Shown: piece after piece, positions 1 to 24,299 of the stretch
Position numbering within the stretch: position 1 is the stretch's first letter
Layout: every line of letters begins with the position of its first letter
Source: a virus
Reading direction: 5' to 3' (one strand)
Length of the DNA: 64,000 nt
IMG/VR virus record: IMGVR_UViG_3300037258_001195
Span: 1-64,000 of that record
Translations under genes and position numbers: made by a program
The notes under the pieces: generated by a model
What the model saw: the letters and a program-made list of their open reading frames with translations, nothing else
What the model was told of the DNA's origin: nothing
Database searches by the model: none

Positions 1-231
1 TCAGCGGCAAAAACGCAGGTCGTCGCGCTCCTGTTCATAGTCGCTCATGACCTGGCGCAGGATGCTGTCGCGGGGAAGCTTGTCGAGCGCGGCCTGGACC
101 TTGTCGAGCGTCGCCTTGTCGTAATGCACGGGAATCGGGCAGCCGGTATGCCCGGTTGTGTCCTGGTCCTTGTCGCCGCAGCCCGCCATCAGCAGGCATG
201 CGGCCACGGCCAAAGCCGCCGTGACCCGCAT
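1..231 (-). CDS. Small lipoprotein (possible spanin-like lysis accessory)
   Basis: MRVTAALAVAACLLMAGC lipobox; last gene of the lysis cassette. Confidence 0.7.
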   Translation of the reverse strand: MRVTAALAVAACLLMAGCGDKDQDTTGHTGCPIPVHYDKATLDKVQAALDKLPRDSILRQVMSDYEQERDDLRFCR

Positions 232-306
232 CGCGTTCCCCCGCCCCATTCCGCCGCACGATGCCGGGCGGGCGGCGCCGGATCAAGCGACACGGCGCCG
301 CGCCCG

Positions 307-711
307 CTAACCCTGCCGCGCGCCCGCCAGGGTCGAGATCTGCCCGATAAGCTGCCCGAGCCAGATCGCGGTCGAGAGAGAGTCGCCCGAGGGCGGGTCG
401 GTGCATGCGGCGTCGCCAAAGCTCTCGATCGACGAAATCTTCGTCTCCGCATCCGCGGTAACCAGCCCGGTCTTCACGACGGCGTCCGCCCCCGCCTTGC
501 CGGTATCGTAGGCAGCGCAGGCATCCTTGATCACCGCATCGGCGTCGGAAGCGGCCGTGTTGACGATCGTCAGCACCCCGGACGCCGCCCCCAGCGCCGA
601 GCCCGCGGCGACGAGCCCGCCGCAGCCCCCAAGCGCCAGCGCCCCGCAGAGCGCCAGCGCCGCCCCGATCCATGCCGCGCCAGTTCGCGCCGGCGCAATC
701 CGCGCCACCAT
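307..711 (-). CDS. Lipoprotein with two extra Cys (paralog of 711-1160)
   Basis: LALGGC lipobox; DAC...C-x-x-P pattern; start overlaps upstream stop. Confidence 0.75.
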   Translation of the reverse strand: MVARIAPARTGAAWIGAALALCGALALGGCGGLVAAGSALGAASGVLTIVNTAASDADAVIKDACAAYDTGKAGADAVVKTGLVTADAETKISSIESFGDAACTDPPSGDSLSTAIWLGQLIGQISTLAGARQG

Positions 712-1160
712 CAATTCGCCGCCGGCAGCGTGACGCCGGCCCCGGCCCACGCCTTTTCCAGCGCTTCATAAAGCGTCAGCATCTCGCCTGCCGCCTGCGC
801 GACATTGGCCGGCGCCGGGTTCGGCGGGCATAGCGGCTCGGCGGCGGCAAGGCTCGCGGCGATCGCCTCCTGGTTTGCGGCCGAGATCAGCTTCGGATCG
901 ATCTCTTCGATCACCGCCACGATCTCGCTTCCCATCGACACGGCGCCGCAGGCATCGGACAGCACCTTCGGCGCGTCTGTCGCGATCGCGTTGTCGGCGT
1001 CGTCGAGATAGCCGGCGATCGTCGGGTCGAGCGCGGCGACGTAGCTCAGCGTTGTCGCCGCCGCGGTCGAGCCCAACAGCGCGTTGATGTCGCTCGCTGG
1101 CTGCGAGGTGCACGCAGCGAGGCCGAGCGCGGCCGCCAGGGCCAGGCCGGCGCGCCTCAC
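711..1160 (-). CDS. Lipoprotein with two extra Cys
   Basis: MRRAGLALAAALGLAAC lipobox; DAC...CPPNP. Confidence 0.8.
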   Translation of the reverse strand: MRRAGLALAAALGLAACTSQPASDINALLGSTAAATTLSYVAALDPTIAGYLDDADNAIATDAPKVLSDACGAVSMGSEIVAVIEEIDPKLISAANQEAIAASLAAAEPLCPPNPAPANVAQAAGEMLTLYEALEKAWAGAGVTLPAAN

Positions 1161-1336: not shown

Positions 1337-1361
1337 CCGATGGTCTCCGATTGAGGGAAAA

Positions 1362-1544
1362 TCAGGCCGGTATCGGCGCGAAGGCGAAGGCGGCGAGGAG
1401 CACGCCGGCAAAGCCGTAGGCGAGCGCCAGCAGCGCCGTGTTGACGGCCTGCGGCGATTCCGGCGCGGCGCCGGTAAGGTCGGTGAGCAGCAGCACCGCG
1501 AGCGTGAGGCAGCACAGCCCCGCGCCCAAGGCGGCATGGTTCAT
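1362..1544 (-). CDS. Small 2-TM membrane protein (holin-like)
   Basis: ATGA overlap with lysozyme stop; two TM segments. Confidence 0.6.
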   Translation of the reverse strand: MNHAALGAGLCCLTLAVLLLTDLTGAAPESPQAVNTALLALAYGFAGVLLAAFAFAPIPA

Positions 1545-2203
1545 TCCGCGGTCAGGGCCCCGGTGGCGTGCCAGGCGCGAAGCTGCGCCTCGGTGCCGAC
1601 CCAGACCGAGCGGTCGACGTTGCCGGTGATCCCGGCGACGATTCCTCGCTCCGTATACTGGTGGAAATCGTAGGGGCGCACGGCCGGACGGCCGGGCGGA
1701 AGCCTCGGCGCGGCGGCAACAAGGCTCGCGTAATCGCCGGTCCGGTGCCGCTGCGGGTATTCGGGCAGCATCAGCGGCCACCGCGACAAATTCGGTTCGG
1801 CCGCCGGGAGCTGCGCCCAGCCGTAATAGCCGACCGGATCCCGGCCGGTCACCGCCGCGACGGCCTCGCCGATTTCAGTCATCACCGCCACTGGCGCCGG
1901 CGTCTCCCAGTCGATCATCGCGGGGGCGCCTTCGCCGACGCCGGACACCTTCAGAAAATGCGCGGCCTGCGCGGCGCCGGCGGTCGCGGCGTCGACGAAA
2001 TGATACGGCACGACGAGCATTCCGGCTGCTTCCGCCCCGGCCCGGTTCTTCTCGAACAGCGGGTCGACATGACCGCCGCCTTCGCTCGCCTTGATCAGCA
2101 CGAGCGCGACTCCGGCCGCGGCGACCGCGGGCCAATCGATCGTGCCGTTCCAATGCGAAACATCGACCACCCCGTCGAACACGGGGTCGGGTAAAGCCGT
2201 CAC
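1541..2203 (-). CDS. GH25 muramidase (endolysin)
   Basis: VDVSHWNG, KASEG, YHF, IDWE, HQYT...GITGNVD GH25 motifs. Confidence 0.92.
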   Translation of the reverse strand: MTALPDPVFDGVVDVSHWNGTIDWPAVAAAGVALVLIKASEGGGHVDPLFEKNRAGAEAAGMLVVPYHFVDAATAGAAQAAHFLKVSGVGEGAPAMIDWETPAPVAVMTEIGEAVAAVTGRDPVGYYGWAQLPAAEPNLSRWPLMLPEYPQRHRTGDYASLVAAAPRLPPGRPAVRPYDFHQYTERGIVAGITGNVDRSVWVGTEAQLRAWHATGALTAE

Positions 2204-2219
2204 ATGCGCCTCCGTCAGA

Positions 2220-2516
2220 TTAGGGATGGCCGTCGAGCCAGCGTGCGGTCACCGCGCCGAGCACGCCCGAGGCGCCGCCCAGCAGCGCCGTCAGCGCCAT
2301 GCGCCAGCGGTGATGGACATAGTCGGCGGAATTGCGCGCCGCCGTGTCGCTGGCGAGGCGCAGCTCGACCGCCCTGACCCGCCGGTCGAGCTCGGCCAGT
2401 TCGCCCGAGCGCGAGCGCAGATCGCCGCGCAACTCGTCAATACGCTGACCGAGCGCGCGGACCTCGGCGCACAGCACGCCCAGCGCCCGGTCCATGTTCT
2501 CCGCATCCGCCGTCAT
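2220..2516 (-). CDS. Coiled-coil protein with C-terminal TM (lysis-associated)
   Basis: Heptad-like N-terminus, hydrophobic C-terminus; directly before endolysin. Confidence 0.65.
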   Translation of the reverse strand: MTADAENMDRALGVLCAEVRALGQRIDELRGDLRSRSGELAELDRRVRAVELRLASDTAARNSADYVHHRWRMALTALLGGASGVLGAVTARWLDGHP

Positions 2517-2568
2517 TGATCGGCCGCCAGGTTGGTGATGGGGTTGTCGTTCGCGAACGAGGGCCGCA

Positions 2569-4410
2569 TCAAAGCCCGTTGATCACCGGGGCCAGCACCG
2601 CGGCCAGGTTTGCCGCCCCCGTCGCCGTCGGGTGCGTGCCGTCGCTGTAGAGCGAGGTGTTCGAGGCTGCGCTGTCCGGCCCCATCGTCGGATCGGCGGC
2701 AAAATCGCAGATCGCGTCGGCATGGATCCCGGAAACGATCGACCCGCCCGTCGTCCAAAGCCTGATTTCGGTATTTGCCGTGGCGCGCCACGCGCTGAAC
2801 CCGCTGACCGTCGAGGGCGTCAGCGTGCAGAGCACCAATTTCCACCCCGCCTTGCGATACCCGTCGCAGAGCGCGGCGAGGTCGGTCAGATAGGTCGGAC
2901 TTCCCTGATCGTCGTGTCCGATGAGCAGCGACAGGATGAATTTCCGCGATCCTGGATTGGGCGGGATACGGCCGTTGACCGCCGCCTGACGTGCCAGGCA
3001 GTCGGCCACGCCTGAGCCGGTGACGGCATTGTCGAACCCCTGGCAGACCGGACTGAACGACGCCGCGGCCAGAAGTGGGTAGAAAGTCGAGATTGTCGGG
3101 GCGACCGTGATGCTGTCGCCCTCGGCGACGTAGATCCTCTTTGGCGCAATGCTGTTCCCCGAGGCCCCGATGCGGGCCACAAGGGCGCCATAAGCCTGCC
3201 GGTATTCAGCGTCGGAAAGCGCCCGGTTCCACAAGGCGATCGCACCGATCTTGTAGTCGCTGAAGAGCGCGGAGGCGCCGTTATTGAGGAACCCGCAGAA
3301 GAAATCCTCGACCTTTTGCGACGGCAGCGCCACGGTCCGGCTAAACATCTTGAGGTCGTCAAGCCAGGCATCGCCGCCGCCCTGGCCGGCGTCGTAACGG
3401 AGCCCAAAGGCGCTCCAGCCCAGGTTGAGGAACGTGTCGTCCCACAGGCTGGAGCTGGTCCGCGGCGTGGTCGCCCCGCCGTTGTTCTGCGTGTACATGC
3501 TGTCGCCGCCGAAATACGAGAACGGACCGGCATTCTCGAACCCGACGATGAGCGGGGAGTTGTTCCCGAACCCCCACTCGTTTCCCGTATGGGCGCCCGC
3601 CGTCTTCGCGGCCAGCACGATCATCGTGGCCGACGACCAGCTCCCGTTCGACGCCGCGAATTGTGCGATGGAATAGCGGTTGGTGGCGTATTGGAGCGCG
3701 CCGGCGGTATAGGCCGGCAGCGAACTGTCATAGGCGGTTCGGCCGAGCAGCACTGCGCCGCTCAACGTGTCCGGCCCGAGATCGAGCGAACCAGGGTAGA
3801 CGCCGAAATCGCAGACCAAAAGATCGAGGGCCGGGCTCGCCGAGTCGGCCGTCCGGATGCCCGGCTGGCGCGCGCCGCTCCAACCCGCGAACGTCTTGGC
3901 GAACACCTGCCAGCTCGTCGTCGCGGCAGCGGTGTCCATCGACCCGGCGATATCCCCGAACCGAAACGACTGCGACGCGCCGGTGTTGCTCTTGATGGCG
4001 CAGCGGACCGTATAGGTCCCCGAGGGGAGACCACCCGAAAACACGCTGTACAAGTAGCCGTCGGTGTCGGCGTTGACCTGCAGACGGGATGCTTCCGTCA
4101 AACCGTCCGGTCCCACCGCGAAATTGTCGGTCGCAGTACAGCTGGTGCGGCCCCACAGGCTCGTGGCAAAGACGCGGCGGGGCGCGGAGATCAGGTTCTG
4201 CGGCACGGCGCCGCCGGCCGCCGCATTCGGCACGTGAGGGCGCGGCGCGGCCTGATATCGATCCATGTACCAAAGACCGACGAGGCCAGGGGCGGGAAAG
4301 CCCTGGGCCTTGCCGCTCAGCAGGATGGTCTGCAGCAAACCGGCCCGCGCCGCCCCGGAAAAGGCGGCCAGGGGCGCGGCCGCAAGCGCCGCGCGTCGCG
4401 TGATCTTCAT
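2569..4410 (-). CDS. Tat-signal fibre-like protein: carbohydrate-binding/LamG-like domains plus C-terminal SGNH/GDSL esterase
   Basis: MKITRRAALAAAPLAAFSGAARA signal; ALWNRALSDAE LamG-like end; GDSIT and DGTHP SGNH motifs. Confidence 0.8.
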   Translation of the reverse strand: MKITRRAALAAAPLAAFSGAARAGLLQTILLSGKAQGFPAPGLVGLWYMDRYQAAPRPHVPNAAAGGAVPQNLISAPRRVFATSLWGRTSCTATDNFAVGPDGLTEASRLQVNADTDGYLYSVFSGGLPSGTYTVRCAIKSNTGASQSFRFGDIAGSMDTAAATTSWQVFAKTFAGWSGARQPGIRTADSASPALDLLVCDFGVYPGSLDLGPDTLSGAVLLGRTAYDSSLPAYTAGALQYATNRYSIAQFAASNGSWSSATMIVLAAKTAGAHTGNEWGFGNNSPLIVGFENAGPFSYFGGDSMYTQNNGGATTPRTSSSLWDDTFLNLGWSAFGLRYDAGQGGGDAWLDDLKMFSRTVALPSQKVEDFFCGFLNNGASALFSDYKIGAIALWNRALSDAEYRQAYGALVARIGASGNSIAPKRIYVAEGDSITVAPTISTFYPLLAAASFSPVCQGFDNAVTGSGVADCLARQAAVNGRIPPNPGSRKFILSLLIGHDDQGSPTYLTDLAALCDGYRKAGWKLVLCTLTPSTVSGFSAWRATANTEIRLWTTGGSIVSGIHADAICDFAADPTMGPDSAASNTSLYSDGTHPTATGAANLAAVLAPVINGL

Positions 4411-4415
4411 CGCGC

Positions 4416-5081
4416 TCACTGGTGCTGCTGGACGGCCTGGACGCCGATACGAAGGTCGGTCGTCGAGCCGGGCGTGAAGGTGCTGCCGGAGACCATCGCG
4501 TAATAGAGCGTCGCCGTACCGGCATGCGGGATGCGGGCCAGGTTGGCGTTTTCGGCAAAGCTGACGGTTGTTCCGGTCGGCGCGGCAAGTGACACCGAAA
4601 ACGGCGCGATGATAAGCCGGTCGATATCGACGATGCCGTCGGTTCCCGGAGTCGACGCGTTGAGCGAAAAGCTGCCTTTGTCGGTAAAGGTCGAGTTCTG
4701 CGGCGCGCTGTCGAAAAGATAGACGGTCAGCGTCGGCATCTGCCCCGACAGCGACTTCACCGCCACGCTTTCGACAAGCGAGACCGGCCCCGAGCCTCGA
4801 AACGACAGGGAGTTCAGCCCGCCGACATCGTTCCCCGCCGCGTAGGCCGAGGTCGAGACCGCCGGTACCCCGACGACCCGATCGCCGAACCACAGCGTCG
4901 GTAGCGGGTTCGCGCTCGACGCCGGCACCACATGCCCGCTCTGGTCCGACGACCCGACCTCGACCGGCGCCGCCGGCACGCCTTGCACCGCGGGCTGATA
5001 GGTCGGATCGGCGGAGGCCGCGGCGGCGGGAACGATGGCCGCGGCCATCAGCAGCGCCGCTGAAACACGACGATTTCGCAT
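4416..5081 (-). CDS. Signal-peptide-bearing beta-rich protein (fibre/decoration-like)
   Basis: MRNRRVSAALLMAAAIVPAAAASA signal; SANPLP fibre-type motif. Confidence 0.7.
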   Translation of the reverse strand: MRNRRVSAALLMAAAIVPAAAASADPTYQPAVQGVPAAPVEVGSSDQSGHVVPASSANPLPTLWFGDRVVGVPAVSTSAYAAGNDVGGLNSLSFRGSGPVSLVESVAVKSLSGQMPTLTVYLFDSAPQNSTFTDKGSFSLNASTPGTDGIVDIDRLIIAPFSVSLAAPTGTTVSFAENANLARIPHAGTATLYYAMVSGSTFTPGSTTDLRIGVQAVQQHQ

Positions 5082-5533
5082 CAAAACCTCCGATACCAGG
5101 TGTTGTTGGCCGTGCGGTAGCGCCACCCGGCGCCGGCATGGGCGCCGAGCGTCAGGCTGCCGCCGTTGACGCTTTGGCCGGATGCCGGACCGACCGTCAG
5201 CGCCGTGATGGTTTGGGTCGAGCTGAGCTCGAAGAACTGTCCGTCATTCGCCGTCGGCGGCATCACCACCGCCAGCGTCGACAGCGTCCCGGCCGGGTCG
5301 ATGACATAGGCAGCGAGATAGGCGCCCGCGGTCAGCGTCGCGCCGCTCGCGGGTTGCTGATAGGAGTAATTGCCGCCGCACGGTGCCCCCGCCTGATGGC
5401 CGCCGGCGGTGGCGCCGTCCTGGACATGCAAGGTGAAATCGTCGGTGTTGACGACGATCTCGCCGGCCGGTCCGGCATAGCTTGCGATCTCGCCCGAGTT
5501 GCCCCGCGCGAGTTGAACCTGGGTGTGTGACAT
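5081..5533 (-). CDS. Short tail fibre adaptor with Mtd N-terminal-like domain
   Basis: QVQLARGN...GEIVVNTDDFTLHVQDGATAGG matches the major-tropism-determinant N-domain; C-terminal knob-like domain. Confidence 0.75.
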   Translation of the reverse strand: MSHTQVQLARGNSGEIASYAGPAGEIVVNTDDFTLHVQDGATAGGHQAGAPCGGNYSYQQPASGATLTAGAYLAAYVIDPAGTLSTLAVVMPPTANDGQFFELSSTQTITALTVGPASGQSVNGGSLTLGAHAGAGWRYRTANNTWYRRF

Positions 5534-6384: not shown

Positions 6385-6385
6385 G

Positions 6386-8171: not shown

Positions 8172-8172
8172 C

Positions 8173-9090
8173 TCACACCGCCAGTTCGGGCGGCGGGATA
8201 TAGGGAAACCCGCCGTAATGGATCAGGTTGTCGAAGGTGTTCTTGCAAGTCGCCGTGGTGTGGTCGCAGCCGGGCAGCAGCCGGAACGTGTCGCCGACCG
8301 ACACCGGAAACAGCCATGCCTTCAGCAGCGACGCGACGCCGCCGGTGAATTGTGCGAGCGTCCGCGTCTGCCCGGCATTGAGCCCCGTAACGCCGATGAT
8401 CGTACCCTGGTCGAAAAGCGTCGCCGGGCTCGGCGCGAGGCCAGTGACGATCGCCGCCTGGGTCGATCCCGCAAGCGCCGCCTGTGTCGACGCCAGGCTC
8501 GTCCGGTCGAACGCGCACATCGCGTCGCCAAACACATGCGTGCAGGCGGCCTGGTATAGCCGGCGCGGCATCTGTTGCACCGCCAGCAAATTCATCATCG
8601 ACTTCACCTTGATCGCAATGCTGGTCCGCCCCGCATCGGTCTCGGCCACCTGGCCGCAAAACCACACGATGGCGCCCAGCGCAGTCGACAGCGCCCCGCC
8701 CCCGGCGTGCGGTGGGGCAAAAAACCGGTCGAGCTCGACGGTCGCCCCGTCGAATTCGCCAACCCGCACCGCCTCGGCGAAGCTAAGGGTGCCGATCATC
8801 TCGTCGCCCTCCGCCATCACGGTGATGTCGAGCTCGGCCGGCTCGACCCCGATCTTGGTCGTCACCATCGACCGCCCAAACCGCGGCCCGAGCGTGAAAT
8901 CGGTATAGCCGGCGGCGTTGTAATTGAGGCTTCCCGCCGGAAACGCCGTCCCCGGAATGGTCAGCGCCGTCGTCCACCCCGAATAGCGCAGCACCAATCC
9001 GCTCGGCAGGCTGAACGTGTACAGATCGACGATCACGATCCGGTCGTTCTGCGCCAGGTAATCCTGCAGCGCGGGCGATGCCGATCTCAC
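8173..9090 (-). CDS. Baseplate hub protein DUF2163/BR0599 (RcGTA g13-like)
   Basis: YQAACTHVFGDAMC; PGCDH...C...FDN...YGGFPYIP. Confidence 0.9.
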   Translation of the reverse strand: MRSASPALQDYLAQNDRIVIVDLYTFSLPSGLVLRYSGWTTALTIPGTAFPAGSLNYNAAGYTDFTLGPRFGRSMVTTKIGVEPAELDITVMAEGDEMIGTLSFAEAVRVGEFDGATVELDRFFAPPHAGGGALSTALGAIVWFCGQVAETDAGRTSIAIKVKSMMNLLAVQQMPRRLYQAACTHVFGDAMCAFDRTSLASTQAALAGSTQAAIVTGLAPSPATLFDQGTIIGVTGLNAGQTRTLAQFTGGVASLLKAWLFPVSVGDTFRLLPGCDHTTATCKNTFDNLIHYGGFPYIPPPELAV

Positions 9091-14078: not shown

Positions 14079-14082
14079 CGCC

Positions 14083-14268
14083 TCACCCCGCCGTCTCATC
14101 TACGAGCACGAACCCATGCCCCCGCAAGGCCTCGACCGCCTCGCGCGGCACCCTGAACACGCCGTCCCTGCCGACGGCAAAAACCTCGCCGCCAATCGAG
14201 CAAGCCCGCGCATCGTCATGCCGCATCGCGACGGTCATCGCCGTCGACGCCGAACGCTTTGCTTTCAT
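14083..14268 (-). CDS. Small capsid-associated protein
   Basis: Directly after MCP; CSIGGEVFAVGRDGVFRVP resembles N-terminus of 46147-46611. Confidence 0.6.
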   Translation of the reverse strand: MKAKRSASTAMTVAMRHDDARACSIGGEVFAVGRDGVFRVPREAVEALRGHGFVLVDETAG

Positions 14269-14362: not shown

Positions 14363-15853
14363 TCAGCCGTTGCCGATATTGGTGATGACACCCATCGCAA
14401 ACGGGGCGTACACCGCCAGCACCTCCTCGGCATAGACGCCGACCTGGCGCTGCCGCGTCACCACCGGCCAGTCGATCTGGTAGTAGTCCTGCCGCGTCTT
14501 GACCTCGGCCACGTTGGGCACTTCGCTCGACTGGTACTGGATCGGCAGGTTCTCGGCCCAGCCGATGATCGTGCCCGGCGGAACGCGCGGGTGGATGCGG
14601 ATCGGGATGCGCAGCCCGCCGTTGAGCGCGAACGGGTTGAAATAGAACGACACCGCCCCAGCCGCGGCCAGATCATAGGCATTCCCATCCGCACTCACCT
14701 CATACCGCAGCAGCGGCGCCGACGCGTTCGACAGCACCTTGTCGGTGATGTTCTTCAGCTCCTGCACGTTGACGTACAGGACGGTCGGGCTCAGCTCGAA
14801 ATTGTTCCACATCGTCTGGAACATCGTGTCGATCTCGACGACCGAGCCACGCCCCGACGCAGTCAGCGGCGTGCCGGTCCCGGCGGTGCCGCTCGCCTGG
14901 GTCGCGATATAGGCGTTGGAGCCTGCCTTGAACGCGCTCGTCAACAGCCCGTCATAGGCATAGCTCGGGTTCGCCGAATTGTCGGCGCTGACCGCCGACT
15001 GCGCCTGCATGCTGCCGGCAAGCGGCGCCGAGAGCGCGGCGCTGTTGATCGTCGTGATCGCCTGCAGCGTCTCCGCCCCGGTCGACGTCCCGACATACCA
15101 CGCATAGGCGACGGCGCCCTGCAGCGCGGTGACGGTACAAAACAAGGTCTGCCCCGACGTCACCGCCTGGCTCGCCTCGGCGCTGATATTCGACGACCCG
15201 CCGGCGAGCGTATAGGAGTGACCGTCCGCCCCCGTGATCGGCTTTGTCGTCGCGACCCCGCCAGAGAGGCTCGAATTCTGGAAGCCTTCGAGCGTCAACC
15301 CCACGACCTTCACATAATAGGTCGTCGCCGGCAGGGTCCCGCCCGACCCCGAGGCCGACAGCACCGGCGTCGCCGGGGTGCCGAGCTGGAGCGACGCGTT
15401 GCCGCCGAGGATCGCCATTTCCTCCTTCAGCATCATCTTTTGCAGGAGCCGAAACGTCATCCGCGACTGGATGTCCTCAAACCCCCGGCCGGCGCTGATC
15501 GCCTCGTAGGTCGCCGCGTCCTCCTCGCCGATCGTCACAAACGTCGCCGATTTGGTCCCGGTCGTATATGACATCTGCGCCGAGCGCTGCCCCTCCGGGA
15601 CCCACCCCATCGCGTCATAGCCCGAGCCCACCAGCGCCGTCACCTGGCGCCAGTTCGTCGCCGTGCCCGTCCCGCCGCCGACCCGCGGAATGACATTTCG
15701 GATCGGTGTGACGAACGGGTACAAATTTTTCGCCGGCGCTTGCAAATCAAACGCGACGAGCCCCGTGCCCGTCGAGATCGTCTTGGCGATCCGGTCGTCG
15801 GGCGAGCGCAGCGCACCCTTGACCAGATCAAGCGTATCTTGTGTCGGATTCAT
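14363..15853 (-). CDS. Major capsid protein with internal FN3/Ig-like insertion
   Basis: Follows protease/scaffold; homologous to 47152-48807 (RQDYYQI.WP, GVYA.EV). Confidence 0.85.
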   Translation of the reverse strand: MNPTQDTLDLVKGALRSPDDRIAKTISTGTGLVAFDLQAPAKNLYPFVTPIRNVIPRVGGGTGTATNWRQVTALVGSGYDAMGWVPEGQRSAQMSYTTGTKSATFVTIGEEDAATYEAISAGRGFEDIQSRMTFRLLQKMMLKEEMAILGGNASLQLGTPATPVLSASGSGGTLPATTYYVKVVGLTLEGFQNSSLSGGVATTKPITGADGHSYTLAGGSSNISAEASQAVTSGQTLFCTVTALQGAVAYAWYVGTSTGAETLQAITTINSAALSAPLAGSMQAQSAVSADNSANPSYAYDGLLTSAFKAGSNAYIATQASGTAGTGTPLTASGRGSVVEIDTMFQTMWNNFELSPTVLYVNVQELKNITDKVLSNASAPLLRYEVSADGNAYDLAAAGAVSFYFNPFALNGGLRIPIRIHPRVPPGTIIGWAENLPIQYQSSEVPNVAEVKTRQDYYQIDWPVVTRQRQVGVYAEEVLAVYAPFAMGVITNIGNG

Positions 15854-15880
15854 CAAAAACTCCCTTTGGGAGGTGGCAAC

Positions 15881-16035: not shown

Positions 16036-17247
16036 CTACCGCATCGCCGGCCGGATCGGGTTCGCATGCGCCGCCTTGATCAGCGCCAGCGTCCGTTCCT
16101 CGTCGCTCATCCGTGACAGCGCCGTGACGACATCGTCGCCGTACCCGCCGCCGTCCCCGCGCTTCGAGATCCCGGCATGCCCGCGCCCAGCGGTCAGCGG
16201 CGGTAAGGGGGTCGCGGCAATGTCCTCGACCCGCTTCGCCAGCGCGTCGAGCCGCGGCACGATCTCACCCGCCAGCGCCTTCATCAGCTCGCCCGGCCGC
16301 ACGCCTTTCGCGCCGTCGTCACGCGCAGGCCCTTCGCCCCCGTCACCGCTCATCCCGCGGAGAAACCCGCACAACCATTCGAGATCTCCGATGATCTGCC
16401 CGATCCGCGTCACCTCGCCGCCGCCGTCCTTGCGCACCCCGGCACCCGCGGCCTTGCCGCCGACGCCATCCCCCGGCGGCCCCGCCGGGTCGATCTTGTC
16501 CTGCCACGCGGCGACGATCCGTGCCTTGATATGCGCGAGCTGCGCCTCGGTATAGCGATCGGTATTGTCGGGCTGGTGTATATAAGCCCAAGCGGCGCGG
16601 ACATGCCCTTCGGTGTTGAGCGGATACCGCTTCTCGCCGTCCGGCCGATACCCGGGATCGGCGAAATCGCCGTCCGCCTCGGCGGCGCCGTCATCGCCTC
16701 CGCCGCGCTTCTCGACGCAGCGCATCGCCTCGGCCTTTATCAGGTGACGATGCGCGGCGACGCCGCAATGCCAGATCTGCACGGGCGGGTTGGCACCCGC
16801 GGCCGCTTCGGCCATGTGTTGTCCTCCTTCGGCTTTCCAGCAATCGAACACCGCCTCGGGGTTGGCCGGGCGGTCGACCAGGCTGATCTCGGTGAGCTTG
16901 AGCCCGGTGATGACGGATCGGTCGGCCGGGTCGCGTTGCGTCACCCGCCCGCCGATCGAGTACCCTTTATAGACGCCGCCCGTCACCTTCTCCCAGGCGC
17001 GCGGGTCGATGATGCGGGCGCCGACATAAAGCCCCTTGTCGTCGACCCCCGCCTCCTCGGCGACACCGACCGCCGACAATTGATGCATCTCGCGGATATT
17101 CGCGAACCGCATGTAATCGTCGAGCGCCGCCGCCAGCGCATCGCGAGTAATCGTCTCGCCCTGGTCATCCTCGGCCGCGGTCGAGGCATAACCCCAAACC
17201 ATATGCTGTGCCGCCTCGACCTTTGCGAGCGGAGCGTAAAAGCGCAT
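16036..17247 (-). CDS. Prohead protease fused to DUF6582-like domain and scaffold
   Basis: NIREMH, YKGYSIGG, EISLVDRPANP protease motifs; FADPGY...KRYPL...HVRAAWAYI domain. Confidence 0.85.
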   Translation of the reverse strand: MRFYAPLAKVEAAQHMVWGYASTAAEDDQGETITRDALAAALDDYMRFANIREMHQLSAVGVAEEAGVDDKGLYVGARIIDPRAWEKVTGGVYKGYSIGGRVTQRDPADRSVITGLKLTEISLVDRPANPEAVFDCWKAEGGQHMAEAAAGANPPVQIWHCGVAAHRHLIKAEAMRCVEKRGGGDDGAAEADGDFADPGYRPDGEKRYPLNTEGHVRAAWAYIHQPDNTDRYTEAQLAHIKARIVAAWQDKIDPAGPPGDGVGGKAAGAGVRKDGGGEVTRIGQIIGDLEWLCGFLRGMSGDGGEGPARDDGAKGVRPGELMKALAGEIVPRLDALAKRVEDIAATPLPPLTAGRGHAGISKRGDGGGYGDDVVTALSRMSDEERTLALIKAAHANPIRPAMR

Positions 17248-17326: not shown

Positions 17327-17366
17327 GCGCCTCGGCAAAGGCCTGGTATTTCGATCCGCCCGGCGC
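17327..17366. repeat. 40-bp direct repeat, copy 2 (orphan fragment of portal gene)
   Basis: 39/40 identical to 18700-18739. Confidence 0.9.
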
Positions 17367-17398
17367 AGGCGCCCCCGCCTGCCGATCCGGCCCCGGGC

Positions 17399-17938
17399 CT
17401 AGCGGTTGCCCTGCGCCGCGGTCGCACGACGGCGTAGTTCCTTCGCAACCTCACTTTTAGTGCCTGCCGGCGCGCCGAGGAGGCCTGGTGTCCAGTGGTC
17501 GTTGGGAAGCGTGTCACAATCGGCCAACGCGGCCGCCTCATTGCCCAGCCGGTAATGGCAGTCGGCGCGAAACAACGGACCGAAGCCGCCCTGCCATTGC
17601 GCCGGGTCCAGGCGTTCACAGTGGTCATACGCCTCAATGGCTTCTTGGTAGCGACCCAGGTCCTGAAGGAGACGGCCTCGCGCTTCGTACGGGGCAGGAC
17701 GATCCTCAAGCTCTAGCGATTTCTCGAGGTCGGCCAAAGCCAGTTCGGGCTGGCCCACCTCGGACCATGCCTGGTGCCGGACAAAATATGCTCCGGCATC
17801 TCGCGGACGCTGCTTAACGAACTCGTTGGTCAGAGTCAGAAACTTCTGCGGCTCGGTCCGCAATAGGTAAAACTGACGATCAATGTCGTCATGGGTAATT
17901 TCATCCGCCATAGCGACTGCCTGCCTCGGTTGCTGCAT
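17399..17938 (-). CDS. TPR-repeat protein (candidate immunity/partner of the portal C-terminal domain)
   Basis: ALADLEKSLEL, RGRLLQDLGRYQEAIEAYD TPR motifs; ATG overlaps TAA of upstream frame (TAATG); alternative start 17911. Confidence 0.82.
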   Translation of the reverse strand: MQQPRQAVAMADEITHDDIDRQFYLLRTEPQKFLTLTNEFVKQRPRDAGAYFVRHQAWSEVGQPELALADLEKSLELEDRPAPYEARGRLLQDLGRYQEAIEAYDHCERLDPAQWQGGFGPLFRADCHYRLGNEAAALADCDTLPNDHWTPGLLGAPAGTKSEVAKELRRRATAAQGNR

Positions 17939-18157
17939 TAGACCTCGTTGCCGCCGCACCGTTCGGAGACCTGTCCCAGAAGGCAGCTCAGCATATCCTT
18001 CCCGGGTCCAGAATACCCAGGGCGGAACTTTCCTCATCTCTCATTCTGCTGCAATATTAGTACGCGAATGCCCACTCTCCGGCGCAGTCCGGGTGGTCTG
18101 GAAACGGGTTTACCGGCAGGGATGGTGGCCGCCCTGTTCCGGTCGTCCATTCCCCCC
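17938..18157 (-). pseudogene. Decayed Cys-rich C-terminal extension of the portal
   Basis: Reconstructs as GGEWTT...DCAGEWAFAY*YCSRMRDE/KFRPGYSGPGKDMLSCLLGQVSERCGGNEV*, with a frameshift in G6 (18152-18157), a TAA at 18057-18059 and a second frameshift near 18032. Confidence 0.65.
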
Positions 18158-19627
18158 TTGAGAATTGCCAGCGGAAACCCGCGGCTCGTCCGGGTTGTAT
18201 TTGCGCATTGAAACCGAGCCCGATCGCCGTTCCGAAGCGTGGCGTTCGCAAGCCTGCCTGGATGTACCTGTCGCGAGCCGTGCCAACACTTCTGGCGCGG
18301 AACCAGCACCGCCAAGCGCCACCGCCCCCTGCGTCCCGTACACCATCGGCCGCTCGCCGCCCGGCACCGGGTCGAGCCCCAAGAGGTCCCGCGCCTCGTT
18401 GATCGCGTAGATGCCGCTGCGGACATAGGTGTCGATGATCTTGGCTTCTTGCGCCGCGTCGGCCGGCCGTCCCTCCGCCCACACGAATTCCAACTCCGGC
18501 TCGCCCAGCCGATCCTGGATCACGTGGTCGGCGAGCCGCTTGACCCACCCCATCAGCGGAGCCATGCCCTCGTCGAGCGCGGCCTGCTGCGAGGTTTCGG
18601 CGGTCGCGCGGTTGATCTGCTTTGTAAACGCGGTCGGCGGCAGCGAAAACGCGAAGCACACGATCCGCGCCAGCCACTCGTCAAACTCGTCCTTGTACGG
18701 CGCCTCGGCAAAGGCCTGGTATTTCGACCCGCCCGGCGCCCACACAAGCCGCGTCCGCGACGCCGTGTTGCCGGCGAGCACGCTGTCGAACCATTCCTGG
18801 AACTGCCGGATTTGCTCGGCATTCCACCCATCCGGCGCGCTCAGCAGCCCCGGCGGAACATTCCCCTCGGTGAAATGCTGGAGCTGCATGACCTGGCGCC
18901 GCAGCGCGATGTTGACGGTCATGATGATCTGTTCGACCGGCCCGAACCCATAGGCCTTATGCGGCCGCGGGTTGCGCGGGAGGTAGAGCAGGTCGTCGCC
19001 GGTCAGCAATTTCCACGGCCGCCCGCGGATCACCTGCTCGAAACCCGGCGCCGGCGGACGCGGCCGCCGCCCGGTATCGTCGATCAACAGCTTGATCGTC
19101 GCCCCATCCACCGCGTCGAGCCCGATCAGCTCGCCGGCCCGGTTGCGCCGCATCTCCAGCGCCGGCGCGTCGAGCACCAGCAAGTCTTCGAGCACCTCGC
19201 GCAGCCAGGTCGCGAACGGCCGCTCGCCATCCGGCCGCCGCCAGAACCCTGCGACCTTCGCCACCCGGCCCGGATCGACCCGCGCGCCCCTCACCCCCTT
19301 GATCTTCCAGCCGAGCTTTTCGATCTGGTCCTTGCGCGTCTCGATCGCGAGCCGCGTGATGTCGTGCCCGTCGGCGAGCGCCCGCAATTCCGCGAACGAC
19401 ACCGCCTCATAGGCGCGCGGCGTATAGATCGTGTTGGCGCCGACCGGAAAGTCCCAGACCCGGAGCGCCTCCTCGTCGATCGGCGCCAGCGGATAGCCCG
19501 GCGAGAAAATCCCTAGATCGGGCTGGAACACGTCCCGGAACTGTGCTTCGAGCCCCTGCTGCCCCCAGGTATAGGATGGGGTGAGGCCCGGGGTCAGTGC
19601 TGTGCGCTTACCACCTTGAGGGGGCAT
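18110..19627 (-). CDS. Portal protein
   Basis: DGATIKLLIDDTGRRP, YGFGPVEQI, INEAR..LGL.P; homolog at 53590-56073. Confidence 0.9.
   Translation of the reverse strand: MPPQGGKRTALTPGLTPSYTWGQQGLEAQFRDVFQPDLGIFSPGYPLAPIDEEALRVWDFPVGANTIYTPRAYEAVSFAELRALADGHDITRLAIETRKDQIEKLGWKIKGVRGARVDPGRVAKVAGFWRRPDGERPFATWLREVLEDLLVLDAPALEMRRNRAGELIGLDAVDGATIKLLIDDTGRRPRPPAPGFEQVIRGRPWKLLTGDDLLYLPRNPRPHKAYGFGPVEQIIMTVNIALRRQVMQLQHFTEGNVPPGLLSAPDGWNAEQIRQFQEWFDSVLAGNTASRTRLVWAPGGSKYQAFAEAPYKDEFDEWLARIVCFAFSLPPTAFTKQINRATAETSQQAALDEGMAPLMGWVKRLADHVIQDRLGEPELEFVWAEGRPADAAQEAKIIDTYVRSGIYAINEARDLLGLDPVPGGERPMVYGTQGAVALGGAGSAPEVLARLATGTSRQACERHASERRSGSVSMRKYNPDEPRVSAGNSQGGNGRPEQGGHHPCR
18700..18739. repeat. 40-bp direct repeat, copy 1 (within portal, encodes APGGSKYQAFAEA)
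   Basis: Matches 17327-17366. Confidence 0.9.
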
Positions 19628-22209
19628 CAGAAGCTGCTCCATGCCGCCCGCTTCCAACTATTAGGAGCGGTGCAGGCGTAAAGAAAGTTGCTGTCGAACT
19701 CGAGCTGCCCGGTCTGGCACGCCGCCGAACTCGTCGACGGCGTGCCGCCCGCCGGAAACATCCCGTTCGCCGACGCAGTCGCCGGCGTCACCGCTGTGAC
19801 CCGGAAATTCGCGCCATCGAAGGTCAGCCGCACATACTCGTAATTCTGCCCGTACAACGTCAGCGCGCTTTGAGCTCCACGCGAGCCGGGAACCAAGATT
19901 TGTCCGCCGCCGCTGCCGTTCACCTGCACGGTCAGGGTCTTGCCGTTATCGGTGACGAACCCCATCGACCACCCCGCGGCGATCGCGCTCGTCGCCGGCA
20001 GCGTGACGGTCAGGCTGGAGATCGGCGTGTTGTAGTCCGACATCACCGTCCCGCAATCGGCGAGCGCGGCGGCATAGGTGCTGACCGACGGGAACACCCA
20101 TCTTTCAAGGCACGTCCCGCCGGAGACGCCGATCGAGGCTGCCGTCACCGGCGTCACTTGCATGACCCGGAAATTCGACCCGTCGAACTGCAGCACTGCC
20201 TCCTCGTAATCCCCCGCAGCCAGCATCAGCGACGTCGCGCTGCCGCCGCTGCCGGGATAGACGATCTTGCCGCCATTGGTCGGATTGACCTGAAAATTGG
20301 CGGTCTTGCCGTTGTCATTGACGATCGCGATCGTCCAACCGGGGTTGATCGCACCCGTCTCCGGCAAGGTGACGCTCAGATACCCCAGCGGGCTGTTGAA
20401 GGCCGATATCGCCGTGCCATTATCGGCGACCGTCGTCGCATAGGCGCTGACCGACGGAAAACTCCACCGATCGATCCCGCCGGTCCCGGCCAGGCCGAGC
20501 TGCTGCGCCGTCGCCGGTGTCATCTGCTCGACCCGGAAATTGGCGCCGCCATCATATTGCAAGGTCACGTATTCGTACTGGTCACCGGCCAGCGTCAGCG
20601 ACGTCCGCGCCGCCGCGTTGACCTGCGGGTACAGGATATGTCCGCCATTCGTGTCGTTGACGTTGACCGTCAGGCCCTTGCCCTGGTCGGTCGCAAACCC
20701 CATTGACCACCCCGACGGCAGCGAGGTCGTCGGCGGCAAGGTCACGCTCAGCCCCGCGCTGGTGTTATAGCTCGACACCACATTCCCGTTATCGCCGAGC
20801 CGCGCCGCATACCCGCTCGTCGATGGAAACAGCCAGTTCCCCGGCCAGTCCCGGCTTTCGAGCCCATTCGTCGCCAGCGTATTGCGGGTCCCGAACACGA
20901 CCCGGAAATTATTCCCGTCCGACTCAAGCTGCATATACTCGTAATCCCCCGGCCCCAGCGTCACCGCGCTCAGCGACTTGCCGCCGGCGAGGATCGCTCC
21001 ACTCGGCGCCGTGATCGTCATCCCCTTGCCGTTATCGGTAGCGAACCCCATCCACCATCCGGCCCCGACCGCGCTCGGCGACGGCAAATTCACCGCCAGC
21101 GTCCCGCCGGTCGCGTTGTAGGACGACACCGCGGTGCCGCTATCGACCGCCGACGCGGTAAAGCTCGCCGCCGTCGGAAACTGCCACTGCGCCCAGTTGC
21201 CTGTGCCATTCACCTCGATCCCGGCCGACTGCCCGGCCCGGTTGACGACCGCGCCGCCGTAATTCGGGTTCATCAAGAGGTTGTGCGTGCTCGCCGTCGC
21301 GTTGACCGCGGTGACGCAATCGAAATACGGCGACACGAAGCTGTTCTGCCCGTCATGGGCAAAGCTGATGCCGAGGCAGATCGGCGACGCCTCCATGTCA
21401 AAGGCGAAGATCGTGTTCGAAAAATCGTATCCGTTTTCCAAGAGCAGCGCCGTCCCCCCGGTCCCATTGGCCGAACCGGCCCCCGAGATCCGCGAAAACT
21501 GCACCTGTTCGAGCGCCATCCCGGCGGCACCGCCCGCCGTGTCGGCGACCGCGAATATATCGCTGTCCAACACGTAATTGAGCTGCAACGCCCCCGCTCC
21601 AGCCGCCGTGCTCGCGTTGTTGACGATCAGGTGATCGAGCCGGATCGAGTTATGCGCGTCGGAGAAATCGGTCTTGCCCACCCTCACCGCATAACCCGGC
21701 GTGTCGGCATTGACGAACAGCGTCCCCTCCTGCCGGAAATAAAAGCACCCGGTCGGACTGAGACTCGTCCCGCCCGAGCACTCAACCTGCAACACCGGCC
21801 CCGATCCAACCGACCGCCCGTCGATCGTCGCCCCTTCGGACAACAGCCGAAACCCGTTCCCGGGCTGCGCGGCATAGTCGATCGTGACCTCGCTCGTCAC
21901 CTTGTAAGTCCCGGCCGGCACATGCACCGGCCAGTTGTGAGTGACTGCCGTCTCGATCGTCGCCTGGATCGCCGCCGTATCGTCGTGGCTGTCGTCACCG
22001 AGAGCTCCGTTGCAGCGCACGTCGATCCACGGCCGCCCCGAGCACATCAGCACGTCGCCGTTCATCGTCGCCGTGCCGCTCGTCGCCAATGTCGAGAAGT
22101 TCCCCGGCGATTGCGCGAGCGCGCCCCAGCCGGACGCGACGCACGCCGCAAACGCGGCCGGCGCGATCGCCCGATCGACCCACCGCATCGCCGCCATTTC
22201 CGTCACCAT
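19627..22209 (-). CDS. Signal-peptide-like N-terminus, pectate-lyase-3-type beta-helix and four ~120-aa knob-like repeats (fibre/spike)
   Basis: DVRCNGALGDDSHDDTAAIQ...VPAGTY; four W.FP...GW...DNGK...YE...DG.NFRV repeats; exact start uncertain. Confidence 0.8.
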   Translation of the reverse strand: MVTEMAAMRWVDRAIAPAAFAACVASGWGALAQSPGNFSTLATSGTATMNGDVLMCSGRPWIDVRCNGALGDDSHDDTAAIQATIETAVTHNWPVHVPAGTYKVTSEVTIDYAAQPGNGFRLLSEGATIDGRSVGSGPVLQVECSGGTSLSPTGCFYFRQEGTLFVNADTPGYAVRVGKTDFSDAHNSIRLDHLIVNNASTAAGAGALQLNYVLDSDIFAVADTAGGAAGMALEQVQFSRISGAGSANGTGGTALLLENGYDFSNTIFAFDMEASPICLGISFAHDGQNSFVSPYFDCVTAVNATASTHNLLMNPNYGGAVVNRAGQSAGIEVNGTGNWAQWQFPTAASFTASAVDSGTAVSSYNATGGTLAVNLPSPSAVGAGWWMGFATDNGKGMTITAPSGAILAGGKSLSAVTLGPGDYEYMQLESDGNNFRVVFGTRNTLATNGLESRDWPGNWLFPSTSGYAARLGDNGNVVSSYNTSAGLSVTLPPTTSLPSGWSMGFATDQGKGLTVNVNDTNGGHILYPQVNAAARTSLTLAGDQYEYVTLQYDGGANFRVEQMTPATAQQLGLAGTGGIDRWSFPSVSAYATTVADNGTAISAFNSPLGYLSVTLPETGAINPGWTIAIVNDNGKTANFQVNPTNGGKIVYPGSGGSATSLMLAAGDYEEAVLQFDGSNFRVMQVTPVTAASIGVSGGTCLERWVFPSVSTYAAALADCGTVMSDYNTPISSLTVTLPATSAIAAGWSMGFVTDNGKTLTVQVNGSGGGQILVPGSRGAQSALTLYGQNYEYVRLTFDGANFRVTAVTPATASANGMFPAGGTPSTSSAACQTGQLEFDSNFLYACTAPNSWKRAAWSSF

Positions 22210-22646
22210 CGCCGCGCGGCAAAGGCCTGGCCGGTCGTCGCCCCGAAGAGGCTCACCGCCCCGGCCGGCTTATACCCCGACGGTGTCGCGAAAATCCCGC
22301 CGTTGGCCAAAACCTGGATGCTCGCGCCATCCGCCGCCGCGGTGCCGGCATCCGACACCCACAGCACCGCGGAGGAATTATTCTGCACGAGGAACCCGTT
22401 CGCCGGCGCGATCCCGCCGAAGAGGGTCTGCGCGCTGCCCCCGGTCGCGACCGTGCCGCTGCCGTCGCTCGCCGCCGCGCCGGCCACGTTGATCACCGGC
22501 AGCGGGGTCGCCGGCCCCACCGGCATCGCCACGCCCTGCGCGTTGGTCGAGGCCGGCGCGTGCACCGGCACCAGATTCCCGTTCCCGTCCACCGCGGTCG
22601 ACAGCGGCTGCACGGTCGTATTCGCGTCCTTCACCAAAAGCGTCAT
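22203..22646 (-). CDS. Beta-rich virion accessory (head-fibre/decoration-like)
   Basis: PVGPATPLPV motif; coupled to TerL stop. Confidence 0.7.
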   Translation of the reverse strand: MTLLVKDANTTVQPLSTAVDGNGNLVPVHAPASTNAQGVAMPVGPATPLPVINVAGAAASDGSGTVATGGSAQTLFGGIAPANGFLVQNNSSAVLWVSDAGTAAADGASIQVLANGGIFATPSGYKPAGAVSLFGATTGQAFAARRW

Positions 22647-23986
22647 GACTTGTCACCTCCGCTCGCCGCGTCTCGGCGATAGAGTTCGAAAATTCCGGCG
22701 CCGCTCATCGGCGACACCAAAAGCTCGCTGAGGCCCCACACCAGCGCATCGACCCGGTCGGGCGAGTACCCGGCCGCGTGGCGGTCGAAATCGCTGGTGA
22801 AGGCGCACATCTGGTCTTCGAGCAGCGGGAACGCGCCGACATGATGCACCCGCCCCTGCTCGTAGAGCGCCGCGACCGGCTCGGCCCGCGCGACCTTGCC
22901 GCGCGCCGCCCGCACCGCGGTAAAGGCGACGTTCGGGTCGACGACGCGCAAGGTCGCCTCGACCATCTCGCCGCCATTGTTCACCTCGGCGACGATCCGG
23001 TCCGCGCCATGCGTCCGCCACGCCGTCAGCGCGACTTTCGCCCATTCCGGCGGCGCATAACGGCCCGACAGATCGCCAAGCACATAGCCGTGCTCGCGCC
23101 CGTCCGGCCCCGCCGCCTTGCCGACAATGACGATCCCGGTCTCGTCCGATGCGCCGCCGCTCGTCGCGGCCGGGTCGATCGCGATGACGAGCCGATCGAG
23201 ATCGGGCTCGATGCCGATCCGCGCCGCCTCGATCATCGCATGGTTCCAGAGCGCCCCCGGCACGTCCTCGAGCAATTCGGCATCGAGCTCCTGCCGCCCC
23301 AGGCGCGTGCCCTCATACCGGCGCACGATCGCGTCGATAAAGGCCGCCGCCAAATTCGCGCGGTTCTCCCGCGTTTTACCGCGCGTCACCGCTACGGTCG
23401 GGTCGACGACGAGCGCCCTGACCAGCCTTGTCGGGCGGGGCGTCGTCGTCACCACCACGCGCGGATCATCGCCAAGCCTGAGACCGAACATCAGCATGTC
23501 CCACGCTTCCGGATACCGCCACGCCGCCAGCTCGTCGCACCAGGCCAGATCGTGCTGCGGCCCCCGAAGCCGCTGCGGCTCATCCGCCGAAAAAATCGTC
23601 GCGATCGCCCCGTTCGACCAGGTCAGTCGCCGTTTCGAGGGCTCATAGACCGGCCGGTCCTTGCGCGGCGACACCGCCAAGACCCCGCTTTCTCCCTCGA
23701 TCATCACATCGCGCGCATCGGCCGCGGTCGGTGCGACAAGGGCGACCCGCCGCGCCTTGCCCGCCGCGACCCGCGCCCGCACGAACTCGGCGCCGGTGCG
23801 CGTCTTGCCAAATCCGCGCCCGGCCAACAGCAGCCACACCCGCCAGTCGCCCGGCGGCGGCCCTTGCTCGTCGCGCCTCCAGAATTTCCAGTCAGTTACC
23901 AGCGCCTGTCTTTCCGCCAGCGTCATTTGCCGCAGCAGCCGCGTCCTCATCCAGCTGGGCAGCGAGGCGAGCCAGACGGCGTTCAA
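22643..23986 (-). CDS. terL: Terminase large subunit, RcGTA g2-like
   Basis: AGRGFGKTRTGAE Walker A; LRGPQHDLAWCDE Walker B; AIDPA and SPDRVDA nuclease motifs; TTG start inferred. Confidence 0.93.
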   Translation of the reverse strand: MNAVWLASLPSWMRTRLLRQMTLAERQALVTDWKFWRRDEQGPPPGDWRVWLLLAGRGFGKTRTGAEFVRARVAAGKARRVALVAPTAADARDVMIEGESGVLAVSPRKDRPVYEPSKRRLTWSNGAIATIFSADEPQRLRGPQHDLAWCDELAAWRYPEAWDMLMFGLRLGDDPRVVVTTTPRPTRLVRALVVDPTVAVTRGKTRENRANLAAAFIDAIVRRYEGTRLGRQELDAELLEDVPGALWNHAMIEAARIGIEPDLDRLVIAIDPAATSGGASDETGIVIVGKAAGPDGREHGYVLGDLSGRYAPPEWAKVALTAWRTHGADRIVAEVNNGGEMVEATLRVVDPNVAFTAVRAARGKVARAEPVAALYEQGRVHHVGAFPLLEDQMCAFTSDFDRHAAGYSPDRVDALVWGLSELLVSPMSGAGIFELYRRDAASGGDKS

Positions 23987-24299
23987 TTTCCTCAAGCGGG
24001 TCCTCGCCGGGATCGGGCTCCGGCTCGTCCTCGTGACGCCGCGGTGCCAGGGGAAAGAGGCCGAAATGCCGGGCCAGCGCATCGAGCGCGGCCTTTTTGT
24101 CATAGAGCTTCACGCGCACCCCGCCCTCGCCGCTTCCGGTCCTGCTGATCTCCGAGATCGCCGCGCGTTCGCTTTCGGACATCTCGGCGAGCGGCTTGAG
24201 CTGCAGCCGGCCCGTGGCGTCCCAGGTCACGATATGGGTGATATCGGCAAGGGCGATGCGCGCATATTCGTTGAATGCCCGCGGGGCATGGTATGCCAA
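23892..24299 (-). CDS. terS: Terminase small subunit, N-terminally short (no HTH)
   Basis: EYARIALADI...VRVKLYDKKAALDALARHFGLF oligomerisation region; overlaps TerL start. Confidence 0.75.
   Translation of the reverse strand: MAYHAPRAFNEYARIALADITHIVTWDATGRLQLKPLAEMSESERAAISEISRTGSGEGGVRVKLYDKKAALDALARHFGLFPLAPRRHEDEPEPDPGEDPLEEIERRLARLAAQLDEDAAAAANDAGGKTGAGN

Follow-up and report, generated by a model that had tools for sequence, protein, structure and literature searches.

A head, tail and lysis gene cluster in an IMG/VR provirus record, probably a copy of a gene transfer agent-like element fixed in Stellaceae

Introduction

The DNA considered here is the first 64 kb (the window) of the IMG/VR record IMGVR_UViG_3300037258_001195, a sequence of 92,987 bp classed as a provirus, and the subject is module A, a block of phage-type head, tail and lysis genes that runs along the minus strand from position 24299 to position 1. 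An earlier note on this DNA had proposed module A as a gene transfer agent (GTA), with a terminase and tail tip like those of RcGTA, the agent of Rhodobacter capsulatus, and a different head. In published surveys, RcGTA-like large clusters are placed in one alphaproteobacterial clade only, and Rhodospirillales are given small clusters or lone terminase homologues (PMC5721377, PMC9254644). Only small clusters were found in this order by Shakya et al. 2017 (PMC5721377), and singlet GTA terminase homologues in free-living Rhodospirillales are mentioned by George et al. 2022. The relatives examined comprise 80 loci from Stellaceae (Rhodospirillales) and unclassified alphaproteobacterial metagenome-assembled genomes. 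Genomes are labelled G and loci L, and three elements (G001:C132, G002:C167 and G003:C62) were compared end to end.

The record and its gene content

Owing to the provirus class of the record, its ends are trim points and not contig ends. Position 1 of the window, the exact IMG/VR trim point, is the stop codon of a minus-strand open reading frame (ORF). The record is scored complete by CheckV. A circular 93-kb replicon was rejected, there being no overlap between the record termini, and an exact-pattern scan of metagenome contigs with the first 50 bases of the record found no independent contig. The GC content is 67% from position 1 to about 28.2 kb, stays near 52% as far as about 91.5 kb, and is about 60% over the final 1.5 kb; the cluster thus lies well above the neighbouring phage (67% vs 52%), as first noticed. 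The absence of an integrase beside the cluster also holds, since no integrase, resolvase or rve transposase was found across the whole record. Moreover, a megablast search of the cluster against phage and plasmid collections gave no match.

The part with 52% GC, from position 28374 of the window to record position 91483, is a lytic-type siphophage genome of 63-66 kb (module B, or phage B). Its early genes encode a DNA polymerase A, a DUF3987 protein, a class II ribonucleotide reductase (RNR), a methylase and a PD-(D/E)XK nuclease. It is without integrase, resolvase and rve, yet lies between high-GC segments in a record classed as provirus. The features of module A and of the segment next to it are given in Table 1, where identities, unless stated otherwise, refer to module B and to the Brevundimonas phage vB_BpoS-Polewnik (Polewnik).

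Table 1. Features of module A and of the adjoining junction, in window positions (aa, amino acids)
Position	Strand	Feature	Basis
23892..24299	minus	Small terminase TerS, 5'-truncated	Pfam Terminase_2, C-terminal part only
22643..24103	minus	Large terminase TerL	Terminase_6N/6C
22203..22646	minus	Conserved 147-aa protein	phrog_22789; 65-85% identical in 60 loci
19627..22209	minus	860-aa pectate-lyase-like protein with internal repeats	PF12708
18110..19657	minus	Portal	PF04860; 44% to Polewnik portal
17399..18037	minus	TPR protein, accessory insertion	TPR families
16036..17247	minus	Prohead protease with C-terminal DUF6582/scaffold-like part	Peptidase_S78, DUF6582
14363..15856	minus	Major capsid protein, 497 aa, internal beta-sandwich insert	
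12533..14099	minus	Head-tail connector, gp10-like and neck proteins (three overlapping ORF calls)	Phage_connect_1, HK97-gp10_like, Phage_tail_S
11576..12340	minus	Putative major tail tube protein	Position; 52% to module B, 42% to Polewnik, same position
10936..11696	minus	Putative tail assembly chaperone ORFs	Position before tape measure; weak match to module B 42150-42566
9690..10919	minus	Short tape measure protein, 409 aa	26% to module B 1024-aa tape measure over 192 aa
9087..9683	minus	Distal tail protein, DUF2460	PF09343, E 2e-46
8173..9090	minus	Baseplate hub, DUF2163 type	PF09931 and PF09356
7734..8171	minus	NlpC/P60 cell-wall peptidase	PF00877
5081..7795	minus	Tail-tip proteins of 469, 283 and 150 aa	Phage-tail_3, Rcc01698_C and Mtd_N, respectively
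2569..5139	minus	Variable fibre, 856 aa	Weak GTA_spike_fiber domain, below cut-off
1541..2516	minus	Lysis genes: 98-aa protein with one hydrophobic segment, and GH25 muramidase	PF01183
1..765	minus	Two small conserved terminal ORFs (1-249/282 and 307-750)	GC at third codon positions (GC3) and homology
24609-24683	minus	tRNA-Gly(TCC)	ARAGORN; Rfam 50.8 bits
24770-24830	plus	Partial tRNA-like remnant	Rfam tRNA, 27.8 bits, model positions 8-63

Module A had been described as a complete structural and lysis cluster of about 24 kb. The head, tail and lysis genes are indeed contiguous over this length, but the truncation of TerS leaves the copy incomplete. The true start of TerL probably lies about 40 codons downstream of the called start. 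The 860-aa protein is a candidate glycan-degrading spike; in 35 of 50 loci its gene is found between those of TerL and the portal, and the ratio of nonsynonymous to synonymous substitutions (dN/dS) is about 0.2. Internal repeats of about 370 bp at 19748-20616 (67-73% identity) fit the rungs of a beta-helix. The TPR gene has a counterpart among the relatives in L028 only. In the spacer beside it, at 17327-17366, stands a 40-nt near-exact copy of a portal segment (18700-18739), which looks like a footprint of the TPR insertion.

The capsid protein has no Pfam match and no PDB sequence match. Its identity is 41% to the homologue that stands at the capsid position in Polewnik, and 26-27% to phage genes annotated as major capsid or head protein. 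The insert that had been noticed in it, there called immunoglobulin-like, is borne out by an AlphaFold model, which predicts an all-beta insert at about residues 157-295 with confidence (predicted local distance difference test score, pLDDT, 75-90); the remaining model is poor (overall pLDDT 45). Homologues of the connector, gp10-like and neck proteins are present in module B and Polewnik, and the tail tube has a dN/dS of about 0.1. The short tape measure is no peculiarity of this copy, for the ORFs at the same place in G002 and G003 encode 410-411 aa, compared with 966 aa in Polewnik and 1024 aa in module B. In the PDB, the hub matches its counterparts in a phage (8gtc) and in RcGTA (6tba), each at about 1e-16. 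Furthermore, the Phage-tail_3 and Rcc01698_C proteins correspond to one fused protein of 787 aa in module B.

Towards the end of the cluster, the 856-aa fibre is not conserved among the relatives. The lysis genes are kept in G001-G003, and positions 7-627 show DNA homology to G001 and G002, just ahead of the host flank. The ORFs 35-769, 766-1113, 1157-1537 and 2513-2845 were rejected as genes, their translations being arginine-rich and of wrong-frame appearance. Repetitive extragenic palindromes had been reported between the genes; no repeated intergenic palindrome family was found, and terminator-like hairpins occur at the number expected from shuffled sequence, so that this feature falls away.

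Relatives at a fixed chromosomal site

Homologues of the module A TerL number in the thousands at 70-92% identity, many of them on long alphaproteobacterial contigs, and the protein is 63-92% identical to more than 300 Stellaceae or other alphaproteobacterial chromosomal copies. The run of TerL, 147-aa gene, 860-aa gene and portal is common to most of the 80 loci. The related elements measure 21-24 kb and lie between host genes in Stellaceae chromosomes, and their GC content equals that of their flanks. From TerS to the last small ORF, module A is colinear with the elements of G001, G002 and G003 at 65-87% DNA identity. The upstream flank is hisS-prfA-prmC-clpB in some loci; in others, including G001-G003, it is a gene of the metallo-beta-lactamase fold with metabolic genes further out. 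Downstream, G001 and G002 carry a gene of 477-511 aa of no assigned family, followed by fabF and then mltG or yicC; in G003, fabD is also seen with fabF before mltG or yicC. No integrase or replication gene was found between the host flanks in G001-G003, nor any replication module of the Polewnik kind between the host flanks of the relatives. The same cluster is thus present at a syntenic chromosomal site in many Stellaceae genomes, the kind of distribution that had been named as a check on domestication. Among 121 sampled genomes of the family, 58 have capsid homologues, in most cases just one each; the unpublished genome G029 is counted here.

The closest relative in IMG/VR is L174, with 85% DNA identity. 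These relatives bear on the idea of a single genuine virus of 93 kb that holds both structural modules, or of a phage made up of module A as structural half and the early genes of module B. The CheckV score and the common orientation of the two modules would agree with such a virus. However, the modules differ by 15 points in GC, and module A shares about 85% DNA identity with chromosomal elements bounded by host genes. Moreover, there are more than 560 capsid relatives in IMG/VR, and the 80 listed stand on contigs of at most about 38 kb, none with an early region of the B type. A single virus of this kind is therefore considered very improbable.

Selection and co-divergence with the host

Across three genome pairs, essentially all structural genes of the element have a dN/dS of 0.08-0.3, the capsid gene showing 0.08-0.16. 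The synonymous divergence (dS) of the element between G001 and G002 is 0.41-0.65 against 0.48 for the flanking fabF, and the other two pairs are similar. Additionally, TerL distances correlate with the distances of the adjacent clpB (Spearman 0.5-0.63, permutation p<=0.002). Such a pattern is expected of an element that is vertically inherited and functionally maintained, as the family may well be. It answers to the first check named in the earlier note and favours its proposal of a host-domesticated particle system. At the level of the family, that proposal is supported by synteny, by co-divergence with fabF and by purifying selection.

The same data bear on a simpler account, in which module A is an inert cryptic prophage remnant that has lost its early half and is kept by recency or hitch-hiking, with no function for the host. 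The truncation of the window copy and its missing regulators would suit a remnant, as would the split capsid genes in several genomes of the family and the existence of closely related full prophages. Against this, about 20 genes are intact across species at a synonymous divergence of 0.4-1.0, equal to that of fabF, the low dN/dS extends throughout, and the same flanking genes recur in several species. This account is regarded as unlikely.

A putative control switch in the relatives

At the head of the elements in the relatives, a minus-strand gene with helix-turn-helix (HTH) and Peptidase_S24 domains, of the cI/LexA-like type, faces a plus-strand gene of DUF6456, the Pfam family of the GTA activator GafA/GafZ (PMC9638019, PMC9765227, PMC9632790). 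The order of the element is accordingly repressor, regulator, TerS, TerL, spike, portal, protease, capsid, tail, tip, fibre and lysis genes. In G001-G003 the gene of the metallo-beta-lactamase fold precedes the HTH-Peptidase_S24 and DUF6456 genes. The switch is present in 40 of 50 loci with at least 3 kb of upstream sequence, and also in the IMG/VR relatives with upstream sequence, L174 included. No cI-like or DUF6456 gene was found in the record itself. In five related phages, among them Polewnik (Strzyga was not searched), DUF6456 was not found.

Phage kin of module A

The Brevundimonas phages vB_BpoS-Polewnik and vB_BpoS-Strzyga, named in PMC10070969, are lytic siphophages of 62 kb that pair a TerL of the A type with a head and tail of the A type. 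The Polewnik genes stand in the same order as those of module A, with identities of 49% for TerL, 44% for the portal, 41% for the capsid, 42% for the tube and 30-45% for the tail tip. Modules A and B also share their structural gene order and are homologous from portal to tail tip (tip 40-60%, N-terminus of the protease 56%, tube 52%, portal 33%, capsid 30%); their TerLs alone are unrelated. The likeness in order to Polewnik thus begins at TerL and that to module B at the portal. Polewnik, Strzyga and module B differ from module A in having replication genes and a tape measure that is about 1000 aa long. Module A, in turn, has its 409-aa tape measure and a host-like GC content, and its relatives are flanked by host genes on both sides.

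Since A and B are homologous through the tail tip, the tip that had been called RcGTA-like is that of the Polewnik/module B phage family. Since Polewnik pairs the same type of TerL with the same head and tail, module A is also probably not a chimera of RcGTA and phage, and the proposed union of an RcGTA terminase and tail tip with a head of the module B family is not supported. The colinearity with Polewnik, TerL included, indicates that module A is the structural half of a Polewnik-like phage lineage. The family has apparently lost the genes for integration and replication, and its tape measure has about 40% of the length found in its phage kin.

One live relative stands closer still. The locus G001:C117 (L089, L031 and L088) is a complete temperate prophage with a tyrosine integrase, a C5 methylase, an RNR, a resolvase and recombination genes. 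Compared with module A, its TerL reaches 68-71% identity and its capsid 80-82%. Unlike the fixed elements, it lies at a different site and has its spike gene within the tail module.

Comparison with RcGTA

TerL of module A carries GRGFGKTRTGAE at residues 95-106 and LRGPQ at residues 179-183. Both motifs, which had been taken as RcGTA-like, are therefore present, but they are not distinctive: GRGxGKTRxGAE and LRGPQ are common to this TerL, to the canonical RcGTA-cluster TerLs and to true phages. Its identity to phage TerLs is 46-57%. A quick maximum-likelihood tree puts the Stellaceae TerLs in a clade of their own outside the group with the canonical RcGTA-cluster TerLs (Shimodaira-Hasegawa-like approximate likelihood ratio test, SH-aLRT, 92-96), and the TerLs of Polewnik and of a Desulfofustis phage nest within the canonical group.

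The megatron family NF048004 has been used as a GTA marker (bioRxiv 10.64898/2026.07.19.739414), and the earlier note names a megatron in the tail tip of RcGTA-type agents. The match of module A to this equivalog (GTA_megatron) is weak and partial, at 69 bits vs a cut-off of 800, and no match over the cut-off was found in the Stellaceae genome G001. The tip thus holds no equivalent of the megatron. In six genomes with a TerL 52-57% identical to that of module A, a megatron gene lies 10-14 kb downstream. Furthermore, neither the capsid (E up to 1) nor the portal matched any RcGTA chain of the PDB in sequence searches, and the portal and protease gave only generic HK97-type matches under the NCBIfam cut-offs.

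The likenesses to RcGTA are nevertheless several. In the relatives of module A, as in RcGTA and CcGTA (Caulobacter), a chromosomal head-tail cluster without integrase stands at a conserved site. Module A and RcGTA have in common the family of their TerL, Walker A and LRGPQ motifs included, a tail tip with DUF2460, a DUF2163 hub and NlpC, and a short tape measure. Its relatives add a regulator of the DUF6456 (GafA/GafZ) family, and the candidate beta-helix spike protein has a parallel in TspA of RcGTA. In contrast to RcGTA, the portal and capsid of the Stellaceae elements are without sequence match to the RcGTA structures, and the tip, having no megatron, is split into smaller proteins in the fashion of phages. 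The Stellaceae elements also hold their lysis genes and switch within the locus, with the 860-aa gene lying between those of TerL and the portal. At about 24 kb, the locus is longer than that of RcGTA (about 15 kb), and the host order is Rhodospirillales.

A descent from the RcGTA lineage, in which regulators, TerS, TerL and tail tip are ancestral and the portal, protease and capsid came from a phage like module B, would account for a TerL that is 52-60% identical to TerLs located 10-14 kb upstream of a genuine megatron gene and for a hub that matches RcGTA g13. However, in Polewnik this type of TerL likewise goes with this type of head and tail, the tail tip is nearer to module B (40-60%) than to RcGTA, and an equivalent of the megatron is lacking. 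The quick tree likewise places the Stellaceae TerLs outside the canonical group and phage TerLs inside it. Such a descent is judged improbable, somewhat more so than the inert remnant.

The truncated junction of this copy

No relative is homologous beyond 24,257-24,299. The break falls inside TerS at about 24,280, the homology of this gene to the relatives beginning at about 24,275-24,281. The TerS of the relatives has about 45 more N-terminal residues, with the conserved LATRSPRR...EIEEIAARAAR, which is absent here in all frames. A TerS with no DNA-binding N-terminus had been listed as a trait of the cluster. The N-terminus is indeed missing from this copy, but because the copy is truncated; the relatives retain theirs.

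Beyond the break follow a terminator-like hairpin, the tRNA-Gly(TCC), the tRNA-like remnant, a papain-like peptidase gene, three ORFs of no assigned family, and phage B. The junction tRNAs are absent from the 12 related loci scanned. For a stretch of 63 nt of the remnant, about 100 Stellaceae genomes show a match at one locus, with 76-79% identity. A DNA search with 24300-28300 in 201 genomes of the family (including the unpublished G444 and G461) returned tRNA-like matches only. No relatives of ORF X (26963-27643) or ORF Y' (record 91548-92330) were found on viral contigs, and Y' and the C1-peptidase ORF (25312-26112) have only sporadic matches of about 40% identity in Stellaceae genomes. An exact-pattern scan of metagenome contigs for the 24.28-kb junction found no independent contig. 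Additionally, a direct repeat of about 90% identity links window positions 26534-27247 with the last 528 bases of the record (92460-92987, L002:9460-9987). If the two copies are one locus, phage B becomes a circle of about 65.9 kb, similar in layout to Polewnik, and module A hangs off it.

These data raise a substantial possibility, if one rated at somewhat under an even chance, that the record is an assembly chimera. The assembler would then have joined a chromosomal element to phage B, a circularly permuted genome of about 66 kb; this would leave module A unaffected, and the truncated TerS and its neighbours would be artefactual. A phage with DNA polymerase A, RNR, DUF3987 and nuclease genes but no integrase, resolvase or rve fits this account. 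The terminal repeat is expected if phage B closes on itself, the breakpoint lies within a gene, and the junction is seen in no other relative. On the other hand, the record counts in IMG/VR as a provirus trimmed out of a longer contig, the tRNA gene and fragment at the junction resemble real integration scars, and the repeat is only 90% identical, with different sequences to its left. The tRNA scars thus favour a real rearrangement at an integration hotspot, and the integrase-less phage B together with the breakpoint inside a gene favours an assembly chimera. Cut in TerS and devoid of the switch and promoter region, the window copy is probably silent, or else its join is an artefact of assembly.

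Interpretation and biological significance

Taken together, the fixed site, the selection and the phage kinship make it rather likely that module A is a copy of a phage-derived head, tail and lysis element that is fixed in Stellaceae, descends from a Polewnik-type siphophage, is GTA-like and was domesticated separately from RcGTA. The loss of early genes and the host-like pattern of divergence support a long-term domestication of the Stellaceae family. A more specific proposal, which goes beyond this and is put forward tentatively, with odds that fall clearly short of even, is that the family is an independently domesticated Stellaceae GTA from a Polewnik-like siphophage. It would combine an SOS-type cI/GafZ-like switch and a lysis cassette, both within the locus, with a tail of reduced length, a spike that degrades glycans and a decorated capsid, and its head genes would still be exchanged with live temperate phages.

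As for how the GTA-like element of the main reading most likely works, DNA damage or another signal would remove the cI/LexA-like repressor, and the DUF6456 protein would then switch on the long late operon. Short-tailed particles with decorated heads would be assembled, and the terminase, with a TerS that has no recognisable helix-turn-helix, might fill them by the headful, largely with host DNA. Lysis would proceed through the small membrane protein and the GH25 muramidase.

Several observations weigh against the main reading. Phages with homologous capsids package about 62 kb, so that the head might carry the whole 24-kb locus, unlike the heads of classical GTAs. The capsid of the complete G001 prophage nests among those of the fixed elements, which means that the gene pool is shared with live phages. 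The same prophage carries a DUF6456-like gene between TerL and portal, so that DUF6456 is not specific to GTAs. Furthermore, the capsid gene is split into two or three pieces in G104, G048, G029 (the unpublished genome), G094 and G059, which indicates copies that are apparently decaying in some lineages. Both flanks were checked in three genomes only (G001-G003), and placement at the conserved site is seen in relatives, the window copy showing only the absence of integrase and replication genes.

At least for the Stellaceae, the finding means that their terminases stand at the front of a complete locus for particles and lysis, which measures about 24 kb, is under selection and differs from RcGTA in head and baseplate. 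Searches for GTAs by the RcGTA capsid or the megatron marker would miss this locus. If the proposal of an independently domesticated GTA is true, a second, non-RcGTA lineage of GTAs would exist in Alphaproteobacteria, and it would explain the singlet GTA terminases of free-living Rhodospirillales. If functional, the element would widen the set of bacteria with dedicated particles for gene exchange, offer a case of repeated domestication from one phage lineage, and provide a system with its switch, particle and lysis genes in one locus.

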